Below are positions 2,254 to 43,261 of a stretch of 64,000 nt of DNA, one piece after another (the first letter of the stretch is position 1; every line of letters starts with the position of its first letter). This stretch comes from Acidobacteriota bacterium (GTDB taxonomy: Bacteria; Acidobacteriota; UBA6911). The stretch spans positions 2,208,001 to 2,272,000 of the forward strand of contig OY761556.1 of the NCBI GenBank assembly GCA_963664705.1, given 5' to 3'. A model generated the notes under the pieces. The model was not told the DNA's origin and did not search any database. It saw nothing but the letters and a program-made list of their open reading frames with translations. Made by a program: the position numbers and the translations under genes.

Positions 2254-3627
2254 TCATGTTTTAGCGAAAATGGTTAGATTTTGGGCCATTTTCGCATAAA
2301 TGGGCTCCTTGACAGACGTTTCAATGATTTCTGTGCGTAGCAAGGTCAGTAAATCGAGCAAAGAAACGCGTGAACTGTTCGATCGCCATTTCGGAAGAGG
2401 GATGCGACAAAAATCGCGACCGGGCCCGAAACAATGCAACCCTGCCAGCAAAAGCATGGAATACGAAGCTACTGTCAAGGCCGGCTGTTTCGATACGGAC
2501 GACATCGACCAGACCTGAGCCTGTCCGACGCTAAGCACAGTTTTTTCGTCTCTATGATTGACTTCGATTTGCCAACGATCAAAGTAGCTTTGGATCAAGT
2601 CTCGGACGGGGCTGTAGGTGTCGGTCGACAGCAAATAACCTGGCTGACGAAAATTTCGGGAGGCATTGGGCGAGAGCTTATATGGTATGGGTGCAATAAC
2701 AATTAATCGCAATTGCCGAGTGCCTGCCCCACGTCGCCAAAGAACGGCTTCCACTATCTTGTAACGAATACGGCGTCTTCTTTGGCCCATCCAGATTTTG
2801 CACCATTTAAAAACAGCGCGCTGGGAATCGAGGACATCCTTAGGAGAGAAGATGTCGATACTATATCGCCGGCCACTGCCCTCGGGTGCAGGGAAACACA
2901 GGCGGGCGTCCTTCCGACATCGTGTCAGCAACTCTGTCCGGTCGAGAGGGTTTTTATAAAAACAGCGGTTACAGAAGCTCGCATCTGCGACGATTCGCAA
3001 TGTGCGATTTGTTGCCTTCATCTTGTCTAACTGGTTCCGGTAGTTTTGAATCCATTCCAACGATTGTGTGGAAAGATTATTAGCATTTTTCAATCGCCTG
3101 TATTCTTCTCGCTGCTGGTCACTGGCACGGATCCCGGGTTTCTTTACGACGGGTACGTGTCTAAAGGCCACTGGATAACCCCGCGCAGAGAATTCACCCT
3201 CGCAATGGTGCGGAAACAGCAAGGATCCTTGCAGAAACCGAAGCCCCCAAATCATGTTTACTTGAAACGGAGGCGACAAAGGATCTCTTTGCCAGCTGGC
3301 CCCTGGGATTTTTTTTCCGCTCTTTACTATCCGAGTGTCATCTACTGCTAGAACCACAGGCTTGTTCGGATATCGATTCAGATATTCTTCAGAGATCCTG
3401 TCAAACAATGCCTGCTCGTCCCAATGACTACGCGAGTAAAACTTGTAATCTGCGCTCCAGTCTTCCTGATTCCGCCCTTGCACACAGATCATCTGCGAGA
3501 TCGTCCTTCGACCCAAGGCCGAAGGCCACGTCAAAGCGTGGTCAATTCCTCGCTTCAGTGTCCGTGCTTGCTTAAAAACATCCTTCCAACTCTGCTCCAA
3601 CAAGGAACGGTAGAAGGGCAGCAGCAT
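2254..3627 (-). CDS. DDE transposase
   Basis: LAVDDT and IVADASF acidic motifs plus Y-x2-R-x3-E-x6-K (YFDRWQIEVNHRDEK); ATG 3627 follows AAGGAG; lies inside the TIRs. Confidence 0.9.
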   Translation of the reverse strand: MLLPFYRSLLEQSWKDVFKQARTLKRGIDHALTWPSALGRRTISQMICVQGRNQEDWSADYKFYSRSHWDEQALFDRISEEYLNRYPNKPVVLAVDDTRIVKSGKKIPGASWQRDPLSPPFQVNMIWGLRFLQGSLLFPHHCEGEFSARGYPVAFRHVPVVKKPGIRASDQQREEYRRLKNANNLSTQSLEWIQNYRNQLDKMKATNRTLRIVADASFCNRCFYKNPLDRTELLTRCRKDARLCFPAPEGSGRRYSIDIFSPKDVLDSQRAVFKWCKIWMGQRRRRIRYKIVEAVLWRRGAGTRQLRLIVIAPIPYKLSPNASRNFRQPGYLLSTDTYSPVRDLIQSYFDRWQIEVNHRDEKTVLSVGQAQVWSMSSVSKQPALTVASYSMLLLAGLHCFGPGRDFCRIPLPKWRSNSSRVSLLDLLTLLRTEIIETSVKEPIYAKMAQNLTIFAKT

Positions 3628-3629
3628 GA

Positions 3630-3983
3630 TCACTCTCCTTGCTTCAGAGCAAAGACGTTCTTGTCCGTTCGCAGAAAGCGATCGTGGCGACGTACCTTTT
3701 TCACTAAGGATGAGACCACGGACTCTCTATCCAGTTGTTTACCAAAGACCTTCTCAATACGTTCCAGGATTTCCGTAATATGTAGCGGCTTGCCTGCCCG
3801 TTGAAGTATGTCGTATACCATATCGATCTGTGACATACTCCCTGCCGTACGCTGCTCTTTCACGGAATCGGGATTCTTTAACTTTCGAATTGCACGTAGC
3901 TGGGCATCGAGTGCCACCTCGAAGGCATTAAGCACAGCGAGTTGGATCGGATCTTGTAGTTCTAGCGGATCTAGTTTCTTCAT
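3630..3983 (-). CDS. Small winged-helix (HARE-HTH-like) protein inside the IS
   Basis: IDMVYDILQRAGKPLHITEILERI...FLRTDKNVFAL pattern; GGAGG RBS; stop abuts the transposase start. Confidence 0.7.
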   Translation of the reverse strand: MKKLDPLELQDPIQLAVLNAFEVALDAQLRAIRKLKNPDSVKEQRTAGSMSQIDMVYDILQRAGKPLHITEILERIEKVFGKQLDRESVVSSLVKKVRRHDRFLRTDKNVFALKQGE

Positions 3984-26310: not shown

Positions 26311-28059
26311 ATGAAACGAAACGGTGCGCTCATTGCTGCCATTCTCTCGATCACAGTCCTATCGATTGCGGTCCCCAGCCCCTCGCAACAAAGCCCAAAT
26401 ACCTTGATTACAGTCCTGAACCCGGCCGTGGCCAACCGACTCGCCGAAAGGCTTCCCCTGGCCCCGCGCCTGGGCACGCTGCAAAACAAAACCATCTATA
26501 TGGTCGATATCAACTGGGGAGGCCCCGAAGCCGCCCTGAGCATCTTTGAAGAAATGCAGGGATGGTTCGCCAGGAACATGCCCACGGTGAAGACGGTTAT
26601 CCGAATGAAACGGGGCGGATATGAAACCGACGATCCGGCCTTATGGAAGGAAATCAAGGAGAATGGAGGAAGCGCGGTCATTCTCGGCGTTTCCGGCTGA
26701 GATGGTTGTACGTCGGCCTTGAGTCGACATGCCCGAACCCTCGAACAGCAATTCAGGATCCCAACGGTCGGCATCGCGGGAAACAATATTGTCGGCTATG
26801 CCACCGGCTATGATTTTCTATATTCCAACGGATGCCCCATCCGCTACATCGCCCTCCCCTTCCCGGTCGCCGGCCAGCCCAAATCCGTGCACAGGCAATA
26901 TGTCGAAGGCAAGGATCTCGTTTCCGGCAAGCAGACCATGCAAGCGGTCGTGGATGCTTTAACTCTTCCGTTAACGGACAATGAAAAAATCAAAGGCATC
27001 CCGCCCGAAGCCAAGGCCGAGCCGAGATTCCTCCGCCCCGATACAGAGGAAAAACTCCAGCGCCTTTTCAAAGACCAGGGCTGGACAGACTACTATCCTG
27101 TTACCCTTCCCACCGAAAAAAGAGTCGCGCAAATGCTCCGGGCCAGCAGTCATAAGCCCGACGAAGTCGTGAAGGTGGTCACCTGGCCCGGCGGCGCCAG
27201 GCCGTTGACCGTCGAAAAGGCCGCGATCTGCGCCGTTATGGCCGGAGCCAGGCCGGAATATTTCCCAGTGATCCTGGCGCTTGCAACCACCGTGCCCTTT
27301 GGCAATTCCACTACGTCAATGGCAAACATGATTGTGGTTAATGGGCCCATCCGCAATAAAATCGGCATGAATTCCGGCGGCCATGCATTGGGACCCTACA
27401 ACGAAGCCAACTCCATCATCGGGCGCAGTCTTACTTTGATGTCCAAAACCGCCGGCGGCCTTCGCAACCGCATCACCACCTGGAGCTCACTGGGAAATAA
27501 TCTCCAATACAACAATCTCTGCTTTGCCGAAAACGAAGAGGAGCTCCCGGCCGGATGGGACCCTCTTCATGTGGGCATGGGATTCCGCCCGGAAGAGAGC
27601 GTGGTTACGGTGGGAGTCGGCTGGAGCTCCATATCGAGCGTGGGATCGGTTCAGCATCTATATCCCCCGCAAATGCTGATCCGGGATTATATGAAATCCC
27701 TTTCAGCCCAAGGCTCCTCGGCTACGATCCTCATGGATCCTACAGTCGCGGCGCTTCTCAAGAATGCTCACGGATTTCAATCCAAGCAAAGTTTATCTCA
27801 ATGGCTGTCCCAGAATGTGGAGAAGACTGCGGAATCATACTGGGGGAATGCGGTAGTCGCCAGCGTCAGCGCTTCCCTGGCCATGCAGGGCCTGGAACCC
27901 TATGCAACGTGGAAGAACCTTCCTGCGGCGGCGCTGATCAAGCCCTTTAACCAGCCGCAAGGAATACAGGTTGTGGTAGTCGGTGGGAAAACGCAAAGCA
28001 CCTGGTTCGCAACCGATTTCAGGCTCGGCCGCGGCGTTCTCGTCGATAGCTGGAGATAG
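26311..28059 (+). CDS. UGSC-family-like putative selenoprotein, 582 aa, Sec at codon 130 (TGA 26698-26700), with signal peptide
   Basis: ORFs 26311-26700 and 26719-28059 share a frame; readthrough gives VILGVSG-U-DGCTSAL (UxxC); GGAGG RBS only at 26311; C-terminal GWTD..P..LPT, TVEK.A..AVMAG and VNGPI motifs. Confidence 0.82.
26704..26739 (+). promoter_or_regulatory. Candidate bacterial SECIS hairpin
   Basis: GTCGGC-CTTGA-GTCGAC stem-loop (26712-26728) starts 11 nt after the TGA; extendable by GTA/TGC and GGTT/AACC. Confidence 0.55.
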
Positions 28060-31078: not shown

Positions 31079-32485
31079 ATGGCCGGGATTTTTGGCTCTG
31101 TTTCCAAAAAAGGAAGCTGTACGCAGGCGCTTTATTATGGGATCGATTACCACTGCCACCTCGGAACGGATTACGCAGGCATGGCGGTGTTTGGAGATAA
31201 AGGGATCGAGCGAAAGATCCATGACATTCGCGGGGAAAATTTCAGACCCAAGTTCCAGCAGGATTATGCGCGGATGAGCGGCAAGTACGGCATCGGCGTG
31301 ATCGGCTACGACATTCAACCCGTCGTGTTTTCATCGCGCCATGGCCTGTTCTCCATTGTGATGAACGGCAATATTGCGAATCTGTCGGAAATAGTCACCA
31401 CGCTGCAGAACCAAGGCTCCAACTTTGCGGAAGTCCAGCCCGATTCCAGCATCAGCCCGGCAGAGGTCGTGGCTGAATTGATCAGCAAAGCCGAGAACCT
31501 GGAGGCCGGCATTCAATCCGTCTTCAGCCATATCCGCGGGTCGGCATCCATACTGGTCCTGACCAAAGACGGCATCTATGCCGCACGCGATCTCTACGGT
31601 CATTCAGCTCTGGTGATAGGAGAAAGCGAAGAGGGCTTTGCGGTGACCACGGAAACGACCGCCTTCCCCAACCTTGGGTTTGCCCCGATTGCCGAGCTTC
31701 TGCCCGGAGAAATCGTAAAGATCAATGAGCAGGGGATCGAGAAAAGGCACGAAGGAGATCGCGAAAAAGCGAGAACATGCGCCTTCCTCTGGGTGTACAC
31801 CAGTTTCCCCGCAACATCTATCGAGGGCATCAACGTGGAAGGAGCCCGCTACCGGAGCGGCTCGCTTCTGGCCAGGCGCGATAAGGCTGCCGGATTTACG
31901 GCCGATATTGTCGCCGGAGTTCCGGACAGCGGAGTCGGGCACGCGATAGGATATGCCAACGAGTCGGGAATCCCTTATGCCAGGCCAATCGTCAAATACA
32001 CGCCATCCTGGCCAAGAAGCTATATGCCTTCCGATCAGTCCACGCGTGACCTGATCGCAAACATGAAGCTCATTGCCATCCCGGAATTGATCCGGGGCAA
32101 ACGCATCGTCATCTGCGATGACTCTATTGTGCGCGGCACGCAGCTCCGCAAAATGATCAAAGATAAGCTTCTGGCTCACGGAGCCAAAGAGGTGCATCTC
32201 CGAATCGCCTGCCCGCCGCTGATGTTTCCGTGCATTTTCAACCAGTCCACACGAACGACAAAAGAACTGGCCGCGCGAAAAGCGATCCGCATCCTGGAAG
32301 GAGAAGACATCCAGAGCACCGGCGAATATATCGACAACAAATCAGCCGGGCACGAAAAAATGGTGGAAACAGTGGCGAAGGAGCTTGGAGCAAATTCGCT
32401 GATGTATCAACGCCTCGATGACATGGCCGCGGCAATCGGGCTGCCGACGGACCGTCTGTGCACTTATTGCTGGATGGGGAAATAA
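31079..32485 (+). CDS. purF: Amidophosphoribosyltransferase-like protein lacking the N-terminal Cys
   Basis: NGNI.N, RD.YG, GVPDSG, DDSIVRGT PRPP loop, ACPP..FPC, LCTYCW; begins MAGIFG after AGGAGG. Confidence 0.85.
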   Translation: MAGIFGSVSKKGSCTQALYYGIDYHCHLGTDYAGMAVFGDKGIERKIHDIRGENFRPKFQQDYARMSGKYGIGVIGYDIQPVVFSSRHGLFSIVMNGNIANLSEIVTTLQNQGSNFAEVQPDSSISPAEVVAELISKAENLEAGIQSVFSHIRGSASILVLTKDGIYAARDLYGHSALVIGESEEGFAVTTETTAFPNLGFAPIAELLPGEIVKINEQGIEKRHEGDREKARTCAFLWVYTSFPATSIEGINVEGARYRSGSLLARRDKAAGFTADIVAGVPDSGVGHAIGYANESGIPYARPIVKYTPSWPRSYMPSDQSTRDLIANMKLIAIPELIRGKRIVICDDSIVRGTQLRKMIKDKLLAHGAKEVHLRIACPPLMFPCIFNQSTRTTKELAARKAIRILEGEDIQSTGEYIDNKSAGHEKMVETVAKELGANSLMYQRLDDMAAAIGLPTDRLCTYCWMGK

Positions 32486-32555: not shown

Positions 32556-34994
32556 CTAGGCTTTGCCGAGCGCCTTCAAAACAGAGTCCGGTGTGACCGG
32601 ATAGCTGTCGACCCAGACCCCCAGCGCATTATGGACGGCAGGCACGAGCAGTGCCGGAACCACGGTGGCAACATCTTCTGCAATTCCGATGATTCCGTAC
32701 GGGCCATATCCCATGCCGGTTTCAACGAGATCAGTGTTTACCGATCCGATGTCCTCGATTGTGGCGATTTTGTAATCCAGAAGGTTGCCGTTGAGCATGA
32801 CACCGGTGGCCGGATCGTGAATCACCTCTTCGCTGCGGCCGCGTCCTACGGCCATATAGGTTCCGCCGTACTGCTGCCCCTCGCAGCCCTCCCAGCTCAC
32901 GACTTTTCCCACGTCATTGACATTTACAACCTTGGTGACCTCAACCTCGCCTGTCTCCGGATCCACCTCGACTTCCATAAAGTGCGCCTGCCGGCACAGT
33001 CGCAGACGCTGGCTGGCATAGGCTCCCTGCTGCACTTGCCAACCGTAGGCAAAGAGCGGTTCCGTAAAGTTGCTCCGCTGGGCGCCCTTTCCCATTTCCG
33101 GCTGCGTGGTGATCGGCCCTTCGCCGCCGGCGGGCCCCACCAGTTCCGCGATCGTTTTTCGAATGGAGGGATCTTTCCTGACGAATATGATGCTGTCCTT
33201 GATGTCCAGGTCTTCCGGGGTCATTCCCGGAAAAACCGGAGGGAAGCTTCCCCGGATCGTCTGCCCCTGGGGTTTGGTGGCCAGCTCCAGAATTCTGCTG
33301 CGAAGAATTCTCGCGGCATTCCGGACGGCAAATCCGTTGACAGACATATTCGTGGAAGAGTCCGGGGTCATGGTAAAAAAGCCAGGATCCGTATGGGGAC
33401 GATAAAACACATCTTCCATTTTCAGCCCAAGCTCATCCGCGGCAATCTGGCAATAGGCTGTTTCAGCGTTTACACCGATATCGCATCGCATGCCCAGGAT
33501 GTTGGCGGTGCCGTCATTCCGCTCAATTCGTATCGCAATTTCACTCGATCCGGAAGAATCCTCCCACTCGTGAGTCCAGGCAAAAGCCATGCCGTGCATT
33601 TTTCCGTTCGGCAATCTTCTGGCGCCGGCGGCATGCCATTTGCCGTCCCAGTCGATTGCAGTCTTCCCTTTCTCCACACATTCCTGGAGACTGTCTCTGA
33701 CCTGGAATCCCATCGCGGCTTTCTGCTCATTCAGCCAATCTATGTCGTGCCCCTCGGCTCCGTCATTCTTGAGCGCAATCTCGACGGGATCCATCCCGAG
33801 AGCTTCCGCGACACGGTTGGTAATCAGCGTAAGCGTCAGGCAGTTTGAGTTCTGCTCACATCGAGTCGGAACATTGGGTCCTTTGTTCACCTGGATTGCT
33901 TCCAGCTTCGCGGCAATATTTTGAATTTTTGTATTTTCGCCAAGATGATGGAACGCGCCGAAAACGGGGAACCATTGATTGGCAACCATCGCTTTCCCCT
34001 CGACAGCGGTGATGGTTCCATCCTTTTGAAATCCCACTTTGATCCAATAGATTCCTTCGTCCATCTCGCCGCCGTAGAAATCTTCTCTGCGGTCGAACAC
34101 CCACTTCACCGGCCGGCCGGTGCGTTTGGCAATCATGGACGCACAGAAGTACGGTCCCATGTTCCACGAACAATGGCTCCAGCCGCCAAAGCTGGCTCCC
34201 TGATAAAGACAATGGACTTGGACTCGGTTCATAGGAACACCGGACCATTCCGAGATTGCCTTCTTGCTGATGAGCGGGTGCTGGTGTTTCAGCCAGAATT
34301 CAGGATATTCGCCGTTCCAGCGAACCACGCCACACGGCCGTTCCGGCCCCATCCAGGTATTGGCGGTGCGCGTCACTTTAAACTCGATCGTCTGATCCGC
34401 TTCGGAAAATCCGCGGACAACATCCCCGTGCTTTTCGACATCGAGGAATCCTTCGTTGTAATGATTCCCGTCCGGAGACATTTCGGGATTTGCCAATGGT
34501 GCGTCCCTCAGGGCTGCCTTCTCCGGATCAATCACAAAGGGCCTTTCGTCCCACTCAACCTCAATCAAGCTCAGCGCTTCATCCACAATTTGCTCGGTAT
34601 CCGCGGCAACCATGACCCCAACTTCCTCTCCCTGGAAGTAAGCGGTATCCGGCAGCACGGTAACCTGGTTCGGCACATGCCCACCCAGGTTGGCCAGTTT
34701 GGGAATCTCCGGATCATCGTAGCGCAGCACCGCGCGGACTCCTGGATAGGATTCGGCCTTACGGGTGTCCATGCTTCGAATCCTTGCACTCGGATAAGGA
34801 GAGGTGAGGAATTTGGCATGCAGCATTCCAGGGAGTTGCAGGTCAATTGTATACACGGCGCGTCCGCTTGCCTTTTCATAGCCATCCAGACGCCGGACTC
34901 CGCGTCGGCCTATGGCAGCGTAGTCCTGCAGCGGGAATTGGTCGGAATTCAGATTGTCCAGCGTTTCCGCGATCTTGCGCATTTCTTCGTTCAT
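32556..34994 (-). CDS. Xanthine dehydrogenase/aldehyde oxidase family molybdopterin-binding subunit
   Basis: RLDG.EKASG.A.Y..D..LPGML.A....SP, GASFGG, QIAADELG, EVEVDPETGEV, EGQ..GG, L.DYK; ATG 34994 after GGAG; no 2Fe-2S or FAD domain. Confidence 0.9.
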   Translation of the reverse strand: MNEEMRKIAETLDNLNSDQFPLQDYAAIGRRGVRRLDGYEKASGRAVYTIDLQLPGMLHAKFLTSPYPSARIRSMDTRKAESYPGVRAVLRYDDPEIPKLANLGGHVPNQVTVLPDTAYFQGEEVGVMVAADTEQIVDEALSLIEVEWDERPFVIDPEKAALRDAPLANPEMSPDGNHYNEGFLDVEKHGDVVRGFSEADQTIEFKVTRTANTWMGPERPCGVVRWNGEYPEFWLKHQHPLISKKAISEWSGVPMNRVQVHCLYQGASFGGWSHCSWNMGPYFCASMIAKRTGRPVKWVFDRREDFYGGEMDEGIYWIKVGFQKDGTITAVEGKAMVANQWFPVFGAFHHLGENTKIQNIAAKLEAIQVNKGPNVPTRCEQNSNCLTLTLITNRVAEALGMDPVEIALKNDGAEGHDIDWLNEQKAAMGFQVRDSLQECVEKGKTAIDWDGKWHAAGARRLPNGKMHGMAFAWTHEWEDSSGSSEIAIRIERNDGTANILGMRCDIGVNAETAYCQIAADELGLKMEDVFYRPHTDPGFFTMTPDSSTNMSVNGFAVRNAARILRSRILELATKPQGQTIRGSFPPVFPGMTPEDLDIKDSIIFVRKDPSIRKTIAELVGPAGGEGPITTQPEMGKGAQRSNFTEPLFAYGWQVQQGAYASQRLRLCRQAHFMEVEVDPETGEVEVTKVVNVNDVGKVVSWEGCEGQQYGGTYMAVGRGRSEEVIHDPATGVMLNGNLLDYKIATIEDIGSVNTDLVETGMGYGPYGIIGIAEDVATVVPALLVPAVHNALGVWVDSYPVTPDSVLKALGKA

Positions 34995-35181
34995 TGGCTG
35001 CTCCGGATTTGTTGCCACAATATGACAAATGCCTTCGCAAATTCCACTGTATTCGTTATCCGCTTGAAATGGGAAAAGTCCCTGAGGCGATCGGATCGTC
35101 AAGGCATAAATCGTGAAATGCCTTTGACTTGGACCGGCGTCCATTTTAGCATTAGGGCACAGGTATAGGGAGGACAGGTGA

Positions 35182-35583
35182 ATGCCGCATAATGATAAAG
35201 ACGATTCGAAACAGACGGTTTCCAAAACGATCTCGCGCCGAGACTTCGCAAAAGGCTCGATGGCCGTGGTGGGGGCCTACTCCTCTTTTGCCCAGGAACC
35301 GCCTCCGCCTCTGTCCGATGCGGCCAAAGAAATAAAGCTCGAACTATCCGACGATGTGCAAAAGGTTCTAGATGAAAGGCACATCACCGAGGAGGATATC
35401 AAGCGGGTGATTGAAAATGCCGAGAGTACCGGGCTGAAGCTCTACCTGCCGGGAACGCAGAACTTCCTGTCAAAGCTGCGGATATACCAGGCATTGTTCT
35501 ATGTGGAGTATACGCTGGTGGAGAAGAATCGCTTTAAGGTTCATACGGCATATCTGCACCGATTCAAACTGGGGGAGGAATGA
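35182..35583 (+). CDS. Small protein with a twin-arginine-like leader and a domain resembling the C-terminus of DVU_1558-type oxidoreductases
   Basis: SRRDFAKG leader; V...LDERHI.EEDI..VI..AE..G...YVEY......V.TAY.HR; GGGAGG RBS. Confidence 0.65.
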   Translation: MPHNDKDDSKQTVSKTISRRDFAKGSMAVVGAYSSFAQEPPPPLSDAAKEIKLELSDDVQKVLDERHITEEDIKRVIENAESTGLKLYLPGTQNFLSKLRIYQALFYVEYTLVEKNRFKVHTAYLHRFKLGEE

Positions 35584-35584
35584 C

Positions 35585-35770
35585 ATGGCCGACTGGTATT
35601 GCTTTCAGGATAAGGAGAAGATGGTCGAGGCCCAGGTAACCCTAAGCTATATGATGCTCTCGCAGAGAGTCCCTGGACTCAGATGCCCGGTTTGCGGCAC
35701 CGAGTATCTTACCGAAAAGACGGTCATGTCGATTGTGAAGGAAGCGGAAAACATACTCGAAGGAAAATAG
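35585..35770 (+). CDS. DVU_1557-like small redox/zinc-ribbon protein (61 aa)
   Basis: WYC....MVE..V.L.Y........RCPVCG..YL.E......EAE..LE.K; ATG after GGAGG, coupled by TGACATG. Confidence 0.75.
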   Translation: MADWYCFQDKEKMVEAQVTLSYMMLSQRVPGLRCPVCGTEYLTEKTVMSIVKEAENILEGK

Positions 35771-35779
35771 TCTCCACGC

Positions 35780-37093
35780 ATGGCCATTGCTCAAAACCAA
35801 ACCGAGAGCCTCTGTCCTTATTGCCTCCGGCAAATCGACGCGCGCAGAGTGCGCGACGAAGATTCCGTGTACCTGGAAAAATCGTGTCCCGAACACGGAG
35901 ACCTCGAAAGAGTTCTTGTCTGGAAAGATTCCCCCTGGCCTTATGAAGCATGGGACCGCGGAAGATCCAAACCGCACGCAACCGTCGCGCAATCTCAAAC
36001 GGATCCGTCCCAACTGCAGGGCTGCCCCCTCGATTGCGGAATCTGCAGCCGCCACGAACAAGCCACCTGCACGGCTATTATCGAAGTGACGCGGGAATGC
36101 AATCTGCAATGCCCGGTTTGCTTCGCCTCAGCGCCAACCGGAACCGGAGCAGGTCCGGATTTGTCCACAATCGAGGAAATGCTGATCACCGTGCGAACGA
36201 CGCGGGGAATTTGCCCTATTCAGCTCAGCGGGGGCGAACCGACGCTTCGGAATGATCTGCCTCAAATCGTGGAGCTTGCCCGAAAACTGGGATTCGATCA
36301 TATTCAAATCAACACCAACGGCATCCGCATTGCCCGGGATGAGTCATTCGCGCAATCACTCAAGGACGCAGGTGTCACCGATTTCTTTCTCCAGTTTGAC
36401 GGCCTGACCGACGATGTCTATGCACGGATTCGAGGCGCGCGACTTTTGACGGTCAAGCTTCAGGCTATCGAACGCTGCGCTCAACTAAAAGTGGGGGTCA
36501 TTCTCGTTCCAACCCTGGTCCGCGATGTCAATGACATGCAGATAGGACAAATCATCCAGTTTGCAAAAAAATGGATTCCCACGGTGAAGGGCGTCCACTT
36601 CCAGCCAATGACCTATTTGGGCCGGTACCCGGATTCACCCTGCAATAGCGAGCGTATCCTGATCCCGGAAATTCTGATAGCGATAGAGGAACAGACGGAG
36701 GGAGAGCTGCTCGCCGAAAATATGGTACCGCCTGGGTGAGAGGAGCCTCACTGCTCCTTTTCCGCCCTCTCCGTGCTGAGAGAAGATGGGATCCTGACGG
36801 CCACGACACGCTTTGACACTCCGGCGGGAGCAGTCTATTCCCACGAAAATGCTGCCGAGAAATCAAAGGACTATGTCCGCCGCCACTGGAGATATCACGA
36901 ACCCGCGCCCGACTCCCAAGACATCCTGGAAAGAGCCAAAAGTCACACTCTGTGCATTTCAGGCATGGCATTTCAGGATGCGTGGAATATTGACCTTGCG
37001 CGGCTCAGGCGCTGCTGTATTCACGTTGTTACGCCGCAAAAAAAAGTGATTCCCTTCTGCTCCTATTACCTAAATACCGGAGTCAGGCCCTGA
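35780..37093 (+). CDS. trsS: TrsS-like radical SAM selenoprotein, 437 aa, Sec at codon 320 (TGA 36737-36739)
   Basis: SLCPYC...CPEHG, GCPLDCGIC, CNLQCPVC, QLSGGEPT, HFQP; in-frame continuation PPG-U-EEPHCSF into ISGMAFQDAWNIDL.RL.RCC.H...IPFC. Confidence 0.85.
36740..36782 (+). promoter_or_regulatory. Candidate SECIS hairpin(s) after the TrsS TGA
   Basis: GAGGAGC-CTCACT-GCTCCTT (36740-36759) and CTCTC-CGTGCT-GAGAG (36767-36782). Confidence 0.5.
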
Positions 37094-37099
37094 AAAAAT

Positions 37100-38437
37100 A
37101 TGATTTATTTGGAGGGGTGGATCCGTCAGATTGTTGCACAGGTGTTGAACCGGACGGCTGTGGATCGTGCGGCCATCGATGCCTATCAATGTCTCCGGCT
37201 GCGCCAGACGCTGCGCTATGCCTATGAACGAAGCTCCTTTTACCGGCAGCATTTTAGCAGCGCCGGTGTCACTCCCGATGACATTCATGATATAAACGAT
37301 CTTTCCCGCCTGCCCTTTACGGAACCGGAGCATTTGGCCGCCTCGCCTTATCGGTTTCTTTGCATTTCCCAATCCGAAATTGCCCGCCCGCATGCTTTTG
37401 TTACCTCCGGTACAACGGGACCGCAAAAAAAAGTTTTCTGGAGCCAGCGCGATCTGGACCGGATTGTCGAGTTTATGGCTGCAGGCATTGCGACGGTTGC
37501 AGACGAAGAGGATGTTGTGCAGATCCTCCTTGCAGATGGACGCCCGTACAGCCAGGCGGATCTGCTGTACCGAGGCGTGCAAAGGCTTGGAGCCAACCCT
37601 GTGATCAGCGGTATGGATATTGGCTCGGATGAACAGCTGCGCATCCTCGAGGAGTCTCACGCGACGGTGCTCTTCGGATACACCCACCAGATCTTTCGCC
37701 TTTCAAAAGACCTTCAAAACAAAACGGACCTTGCCGCCAGGAAAGTAAAGGCGCTTTTCCTCGCCGGAGCTTACGTACCGCCATTGATGCGTCATGAACT
37801 GGAGCATATCTGGAATTGCCGGGTTCACACTCACTACGGATTGACCGAGATGGGATTGGGCGTAGCGGTCGAATGCGATGCGCATGCGGGGTATCACTTC
37901 AATGAAGCCGGCCTTCTTATCGAAGTTGTGAATCCGAAAACAGGGATTGCGGCAGCTCCCGGGGAAGAAGGAGAGCTTGTGTTTACAACGCTTGCCCGCG
38001 AAGCCATGCCGCTCATCCGCTACCGTACACGTGATCTGTCGCGAATACTCCCGGATCCGTGTCCGTGCGGCGCACACAGCCTGCAGCGAATCGACTATGT
38101 CCGCAAGCGGCTGGAATCCATGATTTCGCTTGGCGGGAAAGAAGAAATCTATCCAGCGCTGCTGGATGATGCGCTCTATGGGATTCCTGGCTTGGTGGAC
38201 TACCAGGCGGTGCTGATGCGGGGGGAGAGCCTGTCCCGGCTGAAAGTTACGGCGGATATGTTGTCGGAGAATGCCCATGCATCGGAACAGATCCGTATGC
38301 AGCTACAATCAATTCCGGCCATTGCCAGGAGCATGGCAGCCGGAAAACTGGCCCGTCCAGAGGTCTCTATTGCGGCTCCCGGCGCACTGAAATCAGCCGG
38401 TCGCGAGAAGAAGCTGATAATAGTCAACAGCCAATAG
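37100..38437 (+). CDS. Phenylacetate-CoA-ligase-like AMP-forming enzyme (DVU_1553-like)
   Basis: S.FYR, LPFT, TSGTTG..K, HYGLTEMG, GELVFTTL.REAMPLIRYRT.D, CPCG. Confidence 0.85.
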   Translation: MIYLEGWIRQIVAQVLNRTAVDRAAIDAYQCLRLRQTLRYAYERSSFYRQHFSSAGVTPDDIHDINDLSRLPFTEPEHLAASPYRFLCISQSEIARPHAFVTSGTTGPQKKVFWSQRDLDRIVEFMAAGIATVADEEDVVQILLADGRPYSQADLLYRGVQRLGANPVISGMDIGSDEQLRILEESHATVLFGYTHQIFRLSKDLQNKTDLAARKVKALFLAGAYVPPLMRHELEHIWNCRVHTHYGLTEMGLGVAVECDAHAGYHFNEAGLLIEVVNPKTGIAAAPGEEGELVFTTLAREAMPLIRYRTRDLSRILPDPCPCGAHSLQRIDYVRKRLESMISLGGKEEIYPALLDDALYGIPGLVDYQAVLMRGESLSRLKVTADMLSENAHASEQIRMQLQSIPAIARSMAAGKLARPEVSIAAPGALKSAGREKKLIIVNSQ

Positions 38438-40356: not shown

Positions 40357-41148
40357 ATGCCTGGAGGCAAAAAAGCTGAAAGCGAAGAAGTTGCTGCCAA
40401 GAAGACATTCTCGAGACGCGATTTTATTGTCACCGGTAGCACAATAGCAGCCGTTGACGCACTGATCGCAACAACTCCTGCAAAAGCCGCCATTCCCGCT
40501 GCCACGCCAGCCAAGGGGACCGCGCTTCCGGAATCCAAAGGTTATCTGATTTATGACAGCAAGAAGTGTGCGGGCTGCACCACCTGTATGCTTAGCTGCT
40601 CGCTGACACACTATGGAGTTCAGAGCTTATCGCTCTCGCGCATCCAGATCATTCAAGACTCCTTCGGCAAATTCCCCACCGATATCAAGATGGCCCCGTG
40701 CCGGCAGTGCAAAACGCCTCCCTGCGTCGAGAATTGCCCGGTCGGCGCTGCCTTTGTGGACACCAAAAACGGAAATATCCGGCGAATCGACAGCAAGAAA
40801 TGTATCGGCTGCCGAACCTGCCTGGCGATGTGTCCGCAACAGCCGCATCGGACCGTCTGGAACCATGTCGAAGGCAAGTCTTCCAAATGCGATCTTTGCC
40901 TGGATACTCCACACTGGAATGAAAAAGGCGGGCCAGGAGGAAAGCAGGCTTGCGTTGAATCCTGTCCGATGAAAGCCATCAAGTTTGTAGCCCAAATCCC
41001 GGATCAGACCGAGACCGATGGCTACGATGTCAATCTGCGAAATGATCACTGGCTGAATCTGGGCTTGGTCGAAAACAGCACGATTATTCCGCCGGCTATG
41101 GCGGCGCAGGCCAAAGCAAAGAAACCCGCACCGAAACCGAAGGAATAG
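40357..41148 (+). CDS. 4Fe-4S dicluster (DmsB-like) protein with Tat signal
   Basis: SRRDF leader; CAGCTTCMLSC, CRQC...PC...CP, CIGCRTCLAMCP, KCDLC...AC...CP. Confidence 0.9.
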   Translation: MPGGKKAESEEVAAKKTFSRRDFIVTGSTIAAVDALIATTPAKAAIPAATPAKGTALPESKGYLIYDSKKCAGCTTCMLSCSLTHYGVQSLSLSRIQIIQDSFGKFPTDIKMAPCRQCKTPPCVENCPVGAAFVDTKNGNIRRIDSKKCIGCRTCLAMCPQQPHRTVWNHVEGKSSKCDLCLDTPHWNEKGGPGGKQACVESCPMKAIKFVAQIPDQTETDGYDVNLRNDHWLNLGLVENSTIIPPAMAAQAKAKKPAPKPKE

Positions 41149-41161
41149 GGAGGAAGACATT

Positions 41162-43261
41162 ATGTCAGGCGGATATACCGGTAAAATTGCACGAGTCAAC
41201 CTTACCACGAAAACAATCAGTACGATCGAGACCGCGAAGTATGAGGAATTTGGCGGCGGGCATGGGATGGGTTCTGCCATCTTCTTCGACCTGGTCGGCG
41301 ACCAGCTCCCTTTTGAGGCCTTCGATCCCAGAAACCTGATCATCATGATGGCTTCCCCGTTCTCCGGCACATTCATGCCGGGCTCCGGCCGCTGCGAAGT
41401 GCAGGGGCTTGGACCGGGCCTCTATCCGGTTGAATGGTTTGGGCACAGCAACTTTGGCGGCAGATTCACCGCCCAGCTGAAGTTTGCCGGTTGGGATGGC
41501 ATCGTTGTTGAAGGTGCCTCCGACAAGCCAGTCTGGATCAATATCGCGGACGATAAAATCAAGATTGAAGATGCCAACGGGATCTGGGGCATGGACACCT
41601 ACGATGCGCAGCAGGAAATTTCGCGGCGCGTCATGCCCAACCTCAGATACGGCGAATGGGCAGAGCTTGCCAACAGCTGCTTCACCACGCAGATTCCTGC
41701 AGTTGTCACTTGCGGCCCGGCCGGAGAGAACCTGAGCCGAATCGCCGGTCTGCTGCACGGTCCCGGTTCGCAGGCTGCTCTTTGCGGATTCGGATCGGTG
41801 TTTGGATCCAAAAAGCTGAAAGCCATCAGCGCGATCGGAACCGGCGGGATACCCATTGCCGATCCGAAGGCGTTCATGGATGCCCGTCTGTGGTTCCGAC
41901 AGTTCCAGTGGGACGTCGACAACCCGCGCGAACCCGAGAAGTTTGCGGGCCGCGGCTACTCCCTGATCAACGGAGCTCCAAGCGGCGGCAACGTCAGCAA
42001 TGGCAGTCTTCCTCTTGTGCCCGCGCGCGCTGCCGCGTGCGCCTCTTGCCCAAGAGGTTGCCGTATGCGCCTGGCTTCGGCCGACAGCAATGAATCGGTT
42101 TGCGCAGGAAGCATGTTTGCGCGCATCGGCGGCGGCGGGTTTGGCATGGCTCCGGGTGGTGCCGGCGCCAATGCAATGCCTCAGGCACTCAGCGGAAAGC
42201 TGACCCGACAGGGCAACGATTTGATGCACCGCTATGGTCTGGGCCACTGGCAGTTGATGGCTACTCAAGGCTACATCCAGTTCCTGGAACGAGCGGGAGT
42301 CTTCGGGAAAGGAAAGGAAATCGATCCCGATCTGCCACCCGCCGGAACTTTCGCCTACTATGAAGCGCTCATGAGAAAGCTGTCGCTCCGTGAAGGCAAG
42401 TTCGGCCAACTGGCCGGCGAGGCCGCCGCGAGAATGGCGGAAAAGCTCGGTCGGTACAAAGAAGATGTGAACTCCGGCAACGTGAGATTGACCTACTGGG
42501 GAACGCAAGAACACTACTCCTCCCAGGTGGAAGTCGAATGGGGCTTCGGTTCGCTGCTCGGAGAACGCGACCTGATGCTGCACCAGATTGCCAACTATCC
42601 GCTTCACTGGATGGCGGCTTCCGGCGCACCATACCTGACTGCAGAAGAAGCTTCCAAGCTTTATGCGGAAGCCATGGTTCCATACAATGACGATCGGTAC
42701 CTCGTGGATTATGGCGAAGGCCCGACCGGAGTTTACTCCGATTCCAAGGTCAAGCAGGTTGCCTGGGTCAAGCACTACGAAAAATTCTGGGTTGGCGCCG
42801 GCGGCTTCTGCGGATGGAGATGGCCCCAGTGCATCACCAACAACACCGCCGACCGGAGAGGCGCCACGCCGCAGGCAGAACCCAGGTTCTGGAACGCGGT
42901 TACCGGCAAGAAAGGTACCTTCGGGGACTATATGGCACTCGGGCACAAGATCTACACTCTTGACCGCGCCATCTGGGTCCTGCAGGGACGGCATCGCAAT
43001 ATGGAAGTCTTCCCGGATTACGTTTATGACAAACCAGCCGGCGGCGGAAGCGAGCTGCCCATGGTCGTCGACGGTGTCTGGAAGTATGACGGCGGCCGCG
43101 GTCGGAAGCTGGATCGCGAAAAAGTCGAAGACTTCAAGACGCGGTTCTATAAATTCGAAGGATACAACTCCGAAAACGGGTATCCGACCAGAGCCACTCT
43201 CGAAAAGATGAATCTCAAGAAGGTGGCTGACCTGTTGCAAAGCAAAGGCAAACTCGGGTAA
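41162..43261 (+). CDS. Aldehyde:ferredoxin oxidoreductase (tungsten-pterin AOR/WOR family)
   Basis: GGYTGKIARVNL, SNFGG.F...LKFAGWDGIVVEG, GPAGEN, GSKKLKAI, CASCPRGC, G.PT..TL..L. Confidence 0.9.
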   Translation: MSGGYTGKIARVNLTTKTISTIETAKYEEFGGGHGMGSAIFFDLVGDQLPFEAFDPRNLIIMMASPFSGTFMPGSGRCEVQGLGPGLYPVEWFGHSNFGGRFTAQLKFAGWDGIVVEGASDKPVWINIADDKIKIEDANGIWGMDTYDAQQEISRRVMPNLRYGEWAELANSCFTTQIPAVVTCGPAGENLSRIAGLLHGPGSQAALCGFGSVFGSKKLKAISAIGTGGIPIADPKAFMDARLWFRQFQWDVDNPREPEKFAGRGYSLINGAPSGGNVSNGSLPLVPARAAACASCPRGCRMRLASADSNESVCAGSMFARIGGGGFGMAPGGAGANAMPQALSGKLTRQGNDLMHRYGLGHWQLMATQGYIQFLERAGVFGKGKEIDPDLPPAGTFAYYEALMRKLSLREGKFGQLAGEAAARMAEKLGRYKEDVNSGNVRLTYWGTQEHYSSQVEVEWGFGSLLGERDLMLHQIANYPLHWMAASGAPYLTAEEASKLYAEAMVPYNDDRYLVDYGEGPTGVYSDSKVKQVAWVKHYEKFWVGAGGFCGWRWPQCITNNTADRRGATPQAEPRFWNAVTGKKGTFGDYMALGHKIYTLDRAIWVLQGRHRNMEVFPDYVYDKPAGGGSELPMVVDGVWKYDGGRGRKLDREKVEDFKTRFYKFEGYNSENGYPTRATLEKMNLKKVADLLQSKGKLG

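Follow-up and report, generated by a model that had tools for sequence, protein, structure and literature searches.

The Trs gene cluster, catalogued in NCBIfam as the DVU_1551-DVU_1559-type neighbourhood (NF045645, NF045646 and NF045663-NF045669), is widespread in anaerobes, and no product is known for it. The radical S-adenosylmethionine (SAM) enzyme of the cluster, TrsS, is a known selenoprotein family, listed in PMC13188914, which credits it to Haft & Tolstoy 2025; our literature scan, the scope of which did not take in Haft & Tolstoy 2025, returned no study of the cluster's function, of its toxin-antitoxin-like folds or of the terminal lysine described below. Three further systems are related by homology, fold or logic: the radical SAM enzyme Tes/GDGT-MAS, the MqsR-MqsA toxin-antitoxin pair and the assembly of lipoate on apo-proteins. 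Here we describe a four-gene form of the Trs cluster in a 64,000-nucleotide stretch of an Acidobacteriota genome of the lineage UBA6911 (contig OY761556.1, positions 2,208,001 to 2,272,000 of the forward strand; hereafter, the window), encoded at 35182..38437 of the window and divergent from a gene for an XDH-family molybdopterin large subunit.

With the DVU_1551-DVU_1559-type neighbourhood the locus shares TrsS, an adenylating ligase, a zinc ribbon and the end domain of the NF045663 flavo-Fe-S protein, all in the same order. It differs in comprising only these four genes, in having the NF045663 end domain split off and furnished with a twin-arginine leader, in replacing the first CxxC of the zinc ribbon with CxxD, in lacking the methyltransferase, the C-GCAxxG-C-C protein, XdhC, the NTP transferase and the aldehyde oxidoreductase (AOR), and in sharing its genome with a fuller cluster. 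It represents a variant of a system that is catalogued but functionally unsolved; its novel parts are the split leader domain, the predicted toxin-antitoxin-like folds, the predicted complex and the terminal lysine. The accessible text of a survey of the family UBA6911 (10.1101/2021.04.09.439258) mentions neither molybdenum nor xanthine nor selenium.

The four genes form an intact, conserved module

Almost certainly, the four genes are an intact conserved module and not debris. We re-examined the five genes of an earlier, sequence-only reading of this DNA (window coordinates 32556..38437) by NCBIfam and Pfam profile scans, and all of them, including the Tat-like protein, the zinc ribbon, the selenocysteine (Sec)-containing radical SAM enzyme and the CoA-ligase-like enzyme, are present as that reading stated. 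In window coordinates, the features are as follows.

35182..35583, plus strand: protein with a leader and the NF045663 end domain (NF045663 positions 673-757 only), 133 amino acids (aa)
35585..35770, plus strand: DUF7479/DVU_1557-type zinc ribbon (CxxD...CxxC), 61 aa, C-terminal Lys61; matches the DUF7479 profile
35780..37093, plus strand: TrsS (NF045646), a radical SAM selenoprotein with a multi-cluster architecture of the Tes/GDGT-MAS type; 437 aa, Sec320
36737..36781, plus strand: UGA codon for Sec (36737-36739) and core of the selenocysteine insertion sequence (SECIS; 36767-36781), with synonymous sites frozen in the UGA loci only
37100..38437, plus strand: DVU_1553-family PaaK-like adenylating enzyme, 445 aa (NF045666)
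32556..34994, minus strand: XDH-family molybdopterin large subunit, 812 aa (PF01315, PF02738, PF20256)
34995..35181, no strand: divergent intergenic region, 187 bp, with a sigma-70-like site at 35124-35152 (plus strand)

Both enzymes of the module exceed the cut-offs of their families (TrsS, NF045646: 557.6 bits, cut-off 490; ligase, NF045666: 358 bits, cut-off 300). The zinc ribbon matches Pfam DUF7479 (50.5 bits, cut-off 27) and, weakly, the YgiT finger (21.5 bits, cut-off 20.2), and falls under the cut-off of NF045645, the DVU_1557 protein (38.8 bits versus 60). Of the 759 positions of the NF045663 model, only 673-757 are matched by the 133-aa protein, through its residues 45-130 (65.2 bits against a cut-off of 530), and the full-length FAD/Fe-S/CCG protein of that family is absent from the module and encoded elsewhere in the genome (683.9 bits). 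As judged by these matches, the 133-aa protein is a stand-alone C-terminal domain of the cluster's flavo-Fe-S protein, split off and carrying a twin-arginine-like leader.

The search for TrsS relatives found 413, of which 80 were kept for the locus survey (19 acidobacterial and 61 other). The closest are titled Acidobacteriota, one of them UBA6911. All 19 acidobacterial loci encode the small leader protein, the zinc ribbon and TrsS in the same order, and 18 of the 19 the ligase as well, the contig of the remaining one ending first; ligase presence was checked in the fetched loci only. A second survey, distinct from that of the loci but overlapping with it, covered 125 genomes of the class; TrsS is present in 24 of them, all in this genus, and the leader protein adjoins TrsS in 24 of the 28 genus genomes (19 with UGA in TrsS, five without). 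These genus counts come from related genomes of one lineage (completeness 81-100%), and for that reason we claim no co-evolution from them. DUF7479 occurs in five of 301 genomes sampled across the phylum. Between two relatives, the ratios of nonsynonymous to synonymous substitution (0.25, 0.06, 0.15 and 0.18 for the four genes) indicate purifying selection, and 11 of the 24 module genomes (completeness 81-98%) have no match to the AOR model NF045668. The view that this is a minimal core form of the Trs cluster, proposed in the sequence-only reading, is borne out by this distribution and selection.

Outside the acidobacterial loci, the partners vary. Split forms without the leader are found in Dehalococcoidia, Thermodesulfobacteriota and Bacillota (loci L023, L026, L043 and L046), with a methyltransferase and no AOR; CCG/flavo-Fe-S proteins accompany L023, L026 and L043, and hydroxyacyl-CoA dehydratase subunits the cluster of L046, with AOR found in most of the 61 non-acidobacterial loci. 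The clusters L101-L106 are AOR-linked or stand-alone and have no TrsS, and four of them (L101, L102, L105 and L106) retain the zinc ribbon and the ligase. We considered as a further member a convergent gene for an ArsM-like methyltransferase that follows the ligase in seven of the 19 acidobacterial loci (L024, L025, L027, L028, L034, L036 and L037) and set it aside: it is not of the DVU_1556 type and is absent in the window.

The same genome encodes a second Trs cluster at C1:198070-207597, with a second TrsS of the Cys type. Its AOR (1146.7 bits, cut-off 1100), flavo-Fe-S protein (683.9, cut-off 530), zinc ribbon (82.6, cut-off 60), DVU_1555 C-GCAxxG-C-C protein (135.8, cut-off 103) and ligase (448.3, cut-off 300) all exceed their cut-offs, and its XdhC is below (257.1, cut-off 350). 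The genes that the sequence-only reading listed as missing are indeed absent from the window, which has no NF045668 AOR, DVU_1555 or XdhC, and the flavo-Fe-S protein, the C-GCAxxG-C-C protein and XdhC are nevertheless found at this second locus, as is AOR; for the DVU_1556 methyltransferase and the DVU_1551 NTP transferase no match in the genome reaches the cut-off, the highest scores being 96.1 (cut-off 155) and 141.1 (cut-off 315), respectively. In a quick, midpoint-rooted tree (support by the Shimodaira-Hasegawa-like approximate likelihood ratio test, SH-aLRT, only; hits under 280 residues excluded; no Tes outgroup), the TrsS of the window groups with acidobacterial sequences in a clade of 24 rows (SH-aLRT 100), to which the other TrsS of the genome does not belong. 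The module is a lineage separate from the fuller Trs cluster of its own genome. Tandem TrsS pairs occur in loci L023, L046 and L100, the copies lying on separate branches, each of which is common to these loci.

Selenocysteine in TrsS

The TrsS frame of 437 aa contains an in-frame UGA at 36737-36739, which, as judged by conservation, is a codon for Sec (Sec320) and not a stop. The position holds UGA in 16 of the 19 acidobacterial loci and TGC in the other three. Codons +10, +11, +12 and +14 after the UGA are identical in all 16 UGA loci, and +13 varies only at its first base; the four identical codons (30-45 nt after the UGA) drift in all three Cys loci, and upstream codons vary freely. The evidence for Sec is conservation and not folding energy, since the SECIS stretch folds no better than its own shuffles (z = -0.01). 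The genome has the required apparatus: selA, selB and selD pass their cut-offs, and a gene for tRNA-Sec adjoins them. Of 87 aligned TrsS sequences, 19 carry Sec at position 320 and 59 carry Cys there.

Other traces of selenium use were seen in the genome. At 26311-28059 of the window (plus strand), two in-frame open reading frames (ORFs) are joined by a UGA at 26698-26700 in the context G-U-D-G-C (UxxC), probably encoding an uncatalogued selenoprotein; neither half has a Pfam or NCBIfam match, and C1:767840-769645 holds a comparable pair that ends in TGA. The sel cluster (C1:3072596-3079091, L121) encodes SelD fused to an AhpD-like domain and neighbours a methyltransferase gene with an in-frame TGA. 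A second full tRNA-Sec is located elsewhere (C1:6559014-6559112), as is a tRNA-like element that is mispaired and has UCA as its anticodon (1625651-1625722).

A predicted complex of the two small proteins

The leader of the 133-aa protein spans approximately residues 1-37 and includes S-R-R-D-F-A-K. The consensus of the twin-arginine translocation (Tat) pathway is S-R-R-x-F-L-K followed by an uncharged stretch. An RR-x-F motif is found in 66 of 70 homologues of near-equal length (of the remaining four, three look N-terminally truncated and one is an 86-aa form), with an uncharged run of at least 13 residues in 65 of the 66. TatC is encoded twice in the genome.

The core of the 133-aa protein is modelled confidently, and its best fold match is BrnT (3u97; Z 7.9, root-mean-square deviation 2.5, 74 residues aligned). 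All 15 matches with Z above 5 are RelE/BrnT-type toxins or CdiA/colicin nuclease toxins, RelE, YoeB and MqsR being among those that come after BrnT, and Foldseek agrees on the BrnT/RelE fold at weak E-values. The zinc ribbon is modelled as just that plus one helix (61 aa; predicted local distance difference test, pLDDT, 87), and five of its top seven Foldseek matches are MqsA (E 0.05-0.2), the best match being the MqsA N-terminal domain. ESM Atlas returned only DUF7479 clusters for the zinc ribbon, and a search of solved structures with its sequence profile only generic zinc fingers. When modelled together, the two proteins reach a complex score of 0.83, compared with 0.02 for the best control, with 100% contact agreement between runs and a partner pLDDT of at least 85; the mark used was reached by 116 of 157 solved pairs and two of 215 mismatched ones, counts that hold only roughly with the alignments used here. 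The two small proteins are thus predicted by modelling to bind each other. Natural fusions of the flavo-Fe-S protein to the zinc ribbon in L098 and L099 lend the pairing independent support. The predicted interface includes a Y-x-H-R that is conserved in the RelE-fold domain.

With the MqsR-MqsA, DUF4258-YgiT and BrnT systems the Trs pair would share a predicted RelE/BrnT-fold domain followed by a zinc finger resembling the MqsA N-terminal domain, and predicted binding. It differs from them in that the partner has no DNA-binding domain (no antitoxin-type helix-turn-helix is present in the 61-aa model), the toxin-like domain is in most cases part of a flavo-Fe-S enzyme to which it is fused, an invariant lysine terminates the zinc ribbon and the operon is of a biosynthetic type. 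On the strength of the models, the pair is predicted to resemble a domesticated toxin-antitoxin pair.

The zinc ribbon ends in an invariant lysine

All 67 aligned copies of the zinc ribbon, which come from several phyla and are 23-80% identical to that of the window, end in lysine, in a sample of cluster copies that does not extend to distant zinc-ribbon relatives without a terminal Lys. The only invariant columns are C6, C34, C37, E55 and K61 (67 of 67), and the stop codon directly follows the lysine codon in all 66 locus copies. The best 120 of 970 database matches all end in EDK, 12 of them sharing their tail with aligned members. The lysine stays terminal in the L098 and L099 fusions, which also end in EDK. 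As a background, 11% of 4479 long ORFs and four of 67 partner domains end in K. We infer that the terminal lysine is an attachment site.

A proposed lysine carrier and its alternatives

The reading we prefer, tentatively and at somewhat less than even confidence, is by analogy one of lysine-carrier chemistry, in which the ligase would acylate the terminal lysine and TrsS would modify the tethered group. The PaaK-like ligase would adenylate a small acid and transfer it to the lysine; TrsS would then take a hydrogen from the tethered group and, in the manner of Tes, catch the resulting radical at the C-terminal metal cluster, which Sec320 would adjoin. In complete Trs clusters, the carrier would be held on the flavo-Fe-S enzyme by the RelE-fold domain. 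Here the twin-arginine leader would take the carrier to the periplasm, where the genus has many Tat-targeted molybdenum or tungsten (Mo/W) enzymes; we consider such export of the carrier, suggested by the leader sequence, to be nearly an even proposition. Taken further, the Trs cluster might make an undescribed protein-bound cofactor, with a domesticated MqsR/MqsA-like dock and carrier, a Tat-exported edition, evolved in this genus, that delivers to periplasmic Mo/W enzymes, and TrsS installing sulfur, selenium or a C-C bond, an extended proposal that we regard as rather unlikely.

The logic has precedents. Carriers of the LysW type are comparable in logic. In lipoate assembly, as described in PMC10332631, a ligase (sLpl(AB)) and two radical SAM proteins (LipS1/LipS2) build lipoate on apo-proteins such as LbpA; what is shared with Trs is the logic only, namely a ligase, a radical SAM enzyme, a small acceptor with one invariant attachment residue, and Fe-S redox neighbours. 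By family the two systems differ: Trs has a PaaK-like ligase instead of one of the Lpl type, a Tes-like radical SAM enzyme and, for its acceptor, a zinc ribbon, and the family scans of the module matched PaaK-like, Tes-like and DUF7479 families with no match to an Lpl-family ligase, a LipS/LipA synthase or a GcvH-like acceptor.

Several observations weigh against the carrier reading or its parts. The terminal lysine could equally be a docking or salt-bridge residue, and of the 120 homologues only the terminal position is an independent test, because the profile that ranked them rewards Lys. Where the leader consensus has L, all 66 homologues with the motif have A, T or N, and Pfam TAT_signal gives only weak matches (E 0.16-0.3). 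Likeness to the toxin and antitoxin folds is modest (Z of 7.9, under 8; Foldseek E above 0.001), and the complex score may reflect likeness to solved MqsR-MqsA. One module (genome G107) has no ligase in the 18 kb fetched. Finally, the nearest solved relatives of the ligase are CoA ligases, and its NCBIfam family bears the name of a CoA ligase.

This last point leads to an alternative that we consider unlikely, although to be taken seriously: that the pathway product is a soluble metabolite, the ligase making an acyl-CoA or acyl-AMP from a small acid and TrsS acting on the free compound, with the small proteins serving to shuttle electrons or to dock for anaerobic redox enzymes at large, be they AOR, AFOR, XDH or Hdr-type. 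Consistent with it, the nearest solved structure to the ligase is phenylacetate-CoA ligase (4R1L, E 5.8e-48), NCBIfam calls the zinc ribbon a redox protein, and the partners of the cluster vary between AOR, CCG/flavo-Fe-S proteins and hydroxyacyl-CoA dehydratase. Free intermediates leave unexplained, however, why the lysine is invariant and always terminal, even in fusions. In PaaK-like enzymes the adenylation motifs serve the first half-reaction and the Asp and Gly of the hinge motif the CoA half-reaction; the former, together with Lys437, are conserved in 68-70 of 70 ligases, whereas the hinge Asp and Gly are not among the columns conserved at 90%.

The XDH-family subunit is probably a bystander

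In the sequence-only reading, the molybdenum enzyme encoded head-to-head with the module would be supplied with a cofactor or substrate that the ligase and TrsS produce or alter. The arrangement itself is as described: the XDH gene is divergent from the module across a 187-bp gap and has no adjacent or fused 2Fe-2S or FAD subunit. The protein is below every NCBIfam equivalog cut-off and matches Pfam PF01315, PF02738 and PF20256; its start was placed at the ATG common to orthologues (812 aa), the sequence being used as a query from residue 3, and its nearest solved structure is the alpha subunit of 4-hydroxybenzoyl-CoA reductase (E 9.8e-44). A promoter scan of the intergenic region found one sigma-70-like site (plus strand, 35124-35152) compared with 0.4 +/- 0.6 in shuffles, which is not significant.

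An XDH orthologue (at least 69% identity) is present in 18 of the 28 genus genomes. It adjoins the module in seven of the 24 module genomes; of the 17 that lack adjacency, ten have both parts apart, and in seven no orthologue was found, although one of these (G119) says little, with the module near a contig end. As controls, the purF-like gene lies within 10 kb of the module in ten of the 24 and AFOR is linked to it in eight, both no less frequently than XDH. Genome G118 keeps purF, XDH, Fer4 and AFOR in the same order with no module between. None of the 61 non-acidobacterial loci has this XDH gene, and neither XdhC nor a nucleotidyltransferase travels with the module. A dedicated link to XDH is not supported. 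The sequence-only reading itself pointed to two things that would count against it, loss of linkage in related genomes and decay of the four genes; the linkage is indeed weak, and the genes are not decaying.

In favour of a link, a Mo enzyme from the XDH family is found with the canonical cluster too, and the seven adjacent cases fall into two subclades (two changes, compared with 6.8 when shuffled), which fits an old linkage lost several times and speaks against a bystander role. On balance, we think it improbable that XDH is the enzyme served, and judge from gene neighbourhoods that it is probably a bystander and not a dedicated client; the module may serve the many Mo/W enzymes of the genus in general.

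Nor is the solitary large subunit special to this locus: of 22 XDH-family large subunits in the genome (Pfam search, 24 loci), 13 have no partner within 3 kb, so this state is normal here. The genome encodes 12 stand-alone 2Fe-2S and ten FAD genes elsewhere that could supply partners, and they are likely, as the gene inventory suggests, to act in trans. Four near-identical twin-arginine 2Fe-2S genes each stand beside a FAD gene, two of the pairs having no large subunit; such pairs and the lone large subunits suggest interchangeable large subunits on a shared export module.

Two neighbours of the locus merit mention in their own right. The purF-like gene (window 31079-32485, plus strand; TIGR01134, 214.6 bits, cut-off 350) is present in 17 of the 28 genus genomes and its product begins M-A-G, without the N-terminal Cys that PurF uses. 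At 40357-43261 (plus strand), a twin-arginine Fer4 subunit is encoded with an AFOR-family enzyme; the genome has five close AFOR paralogues, of which one (C1:6583947-6586022) contains a TAG in frame, and AFOR is found in 27 of the 28 genus genomes.

TrsS and the tetraether synthases

TrsS could also be a lipid enzyme that joins alkyl tails as Tes does, the ligase activating fatty acids. Its nearest solved structure is GDGT-MAS (7TOL, E 6.9e-87), and PMC8941075 proposes bacterial Tes homologues as candidates for the synthesis of branched glycerol dialkyl glycerol tetraethers (GDGT). With Tes/GDGT-MAS (7TOL, 7TOM; PMC9433317) it shares the rubredoxin site, the N-cluster, the radical SAM (RS) cluster, the C-terminal Cys residues and the equivalent of Met439. 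By the ligand list in PMC9433317, ligands for all four metal sites are present, those of the C-terminal Cys being assigned by alignment only: the columns of the rubredoxin site, of the N- and RS-clusters and of the C-terminal Cys residues, as well as Met396, are kept in 82-87 of 87 TrsS sequences, and the Met439 equivalent and the Tes metal ligands in 87 of 87. The same paper reports C-C coupling by Tes through a substrate-sulfur intermediate at the C-terminal cluster; Sec320 of TrsS sits five residues ahead of a conserved C-terminal Cys.

Despite this likeness, we find a lipid function very improbable. TrsS is under the cut-off of the Tes model NF045702 (364.3 bits versus 450) and approximately 97 aa shorter than the genome's own Tes, with the deletions in the C-terminal domain; it further differs from Tes in carrying Sec and in being encoded with a ligase and small proteins. 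The position of Tyr459 is Val in 74 of the 87 and Tyr in one, a difference that is not decisive by itself, since Y459 variants of Tes were active in the work reported in PMC9433317. The genome's own Tes passes the cut-off (569.8), so TrsS need not make lipids, and for the same reason is a poor marker of lipid synthases in Acidobacteriota. This Tes homologue and a second, Tes-like protein of 644 aa below the cut-off (L019 and L020; C1:2012343-2013947 and 773185-775119) are candidates in their own right for making lipids that span the membrane.

Two further alternatives fare worse. It is highly improbable that the two small genes still function as toxin and antitoxin, a RelE/BrnT RNase and a YgiT-type antitoxin that stabilise the locus: the predicted folds, the predicted binding and weak DUF4258 matches in six of 32 members would fit, but in most cases the domain forms the end of a flavo-Fe-S enzyme of 750-800 aa to which it is fused, its identity to the listed toxins is 7-17%, the 61-aa partner is too small to hold the DNA-binding domain of MqsA and the gene order beside the ligase and TrsS does not change from phylum to phylum. 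That the four genes are a decaying duplicate of the fuller cluster, as the lack of the AOR, flavo-Fe-S body, C-GCAxxG-C-C protein and XdhC of C1:198070-207597 might suggest, can be dismissed with near certainty, given that the module is present in 24 of the 28 genus genomes and the fused flavo-Fe-S form in 13 of the 28, that selection is purifying, that its TrsS is not sister to the other and that the SECIS is maintained.

Elsewhere in the window, a two-ORF element at 2254-3983 (minus strand) recurs at C1:220354-222083 (plus strand) with identical N-termini and lengths, and is probably an insertion sequence.

Significance

For a cluster so widespread and without a known product, the terminal lysine and the predicted complex offer a concrete substrate for investigation, and the four-gene form a small natural set in which to pursue it. 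If the carrier reading is true, the Trs system would represent a new pathway to a protein-bound cofactor, a new reaction on the scaffold of Tes and an instance in which metabolism has taken over a toxin-antitoxin pair.

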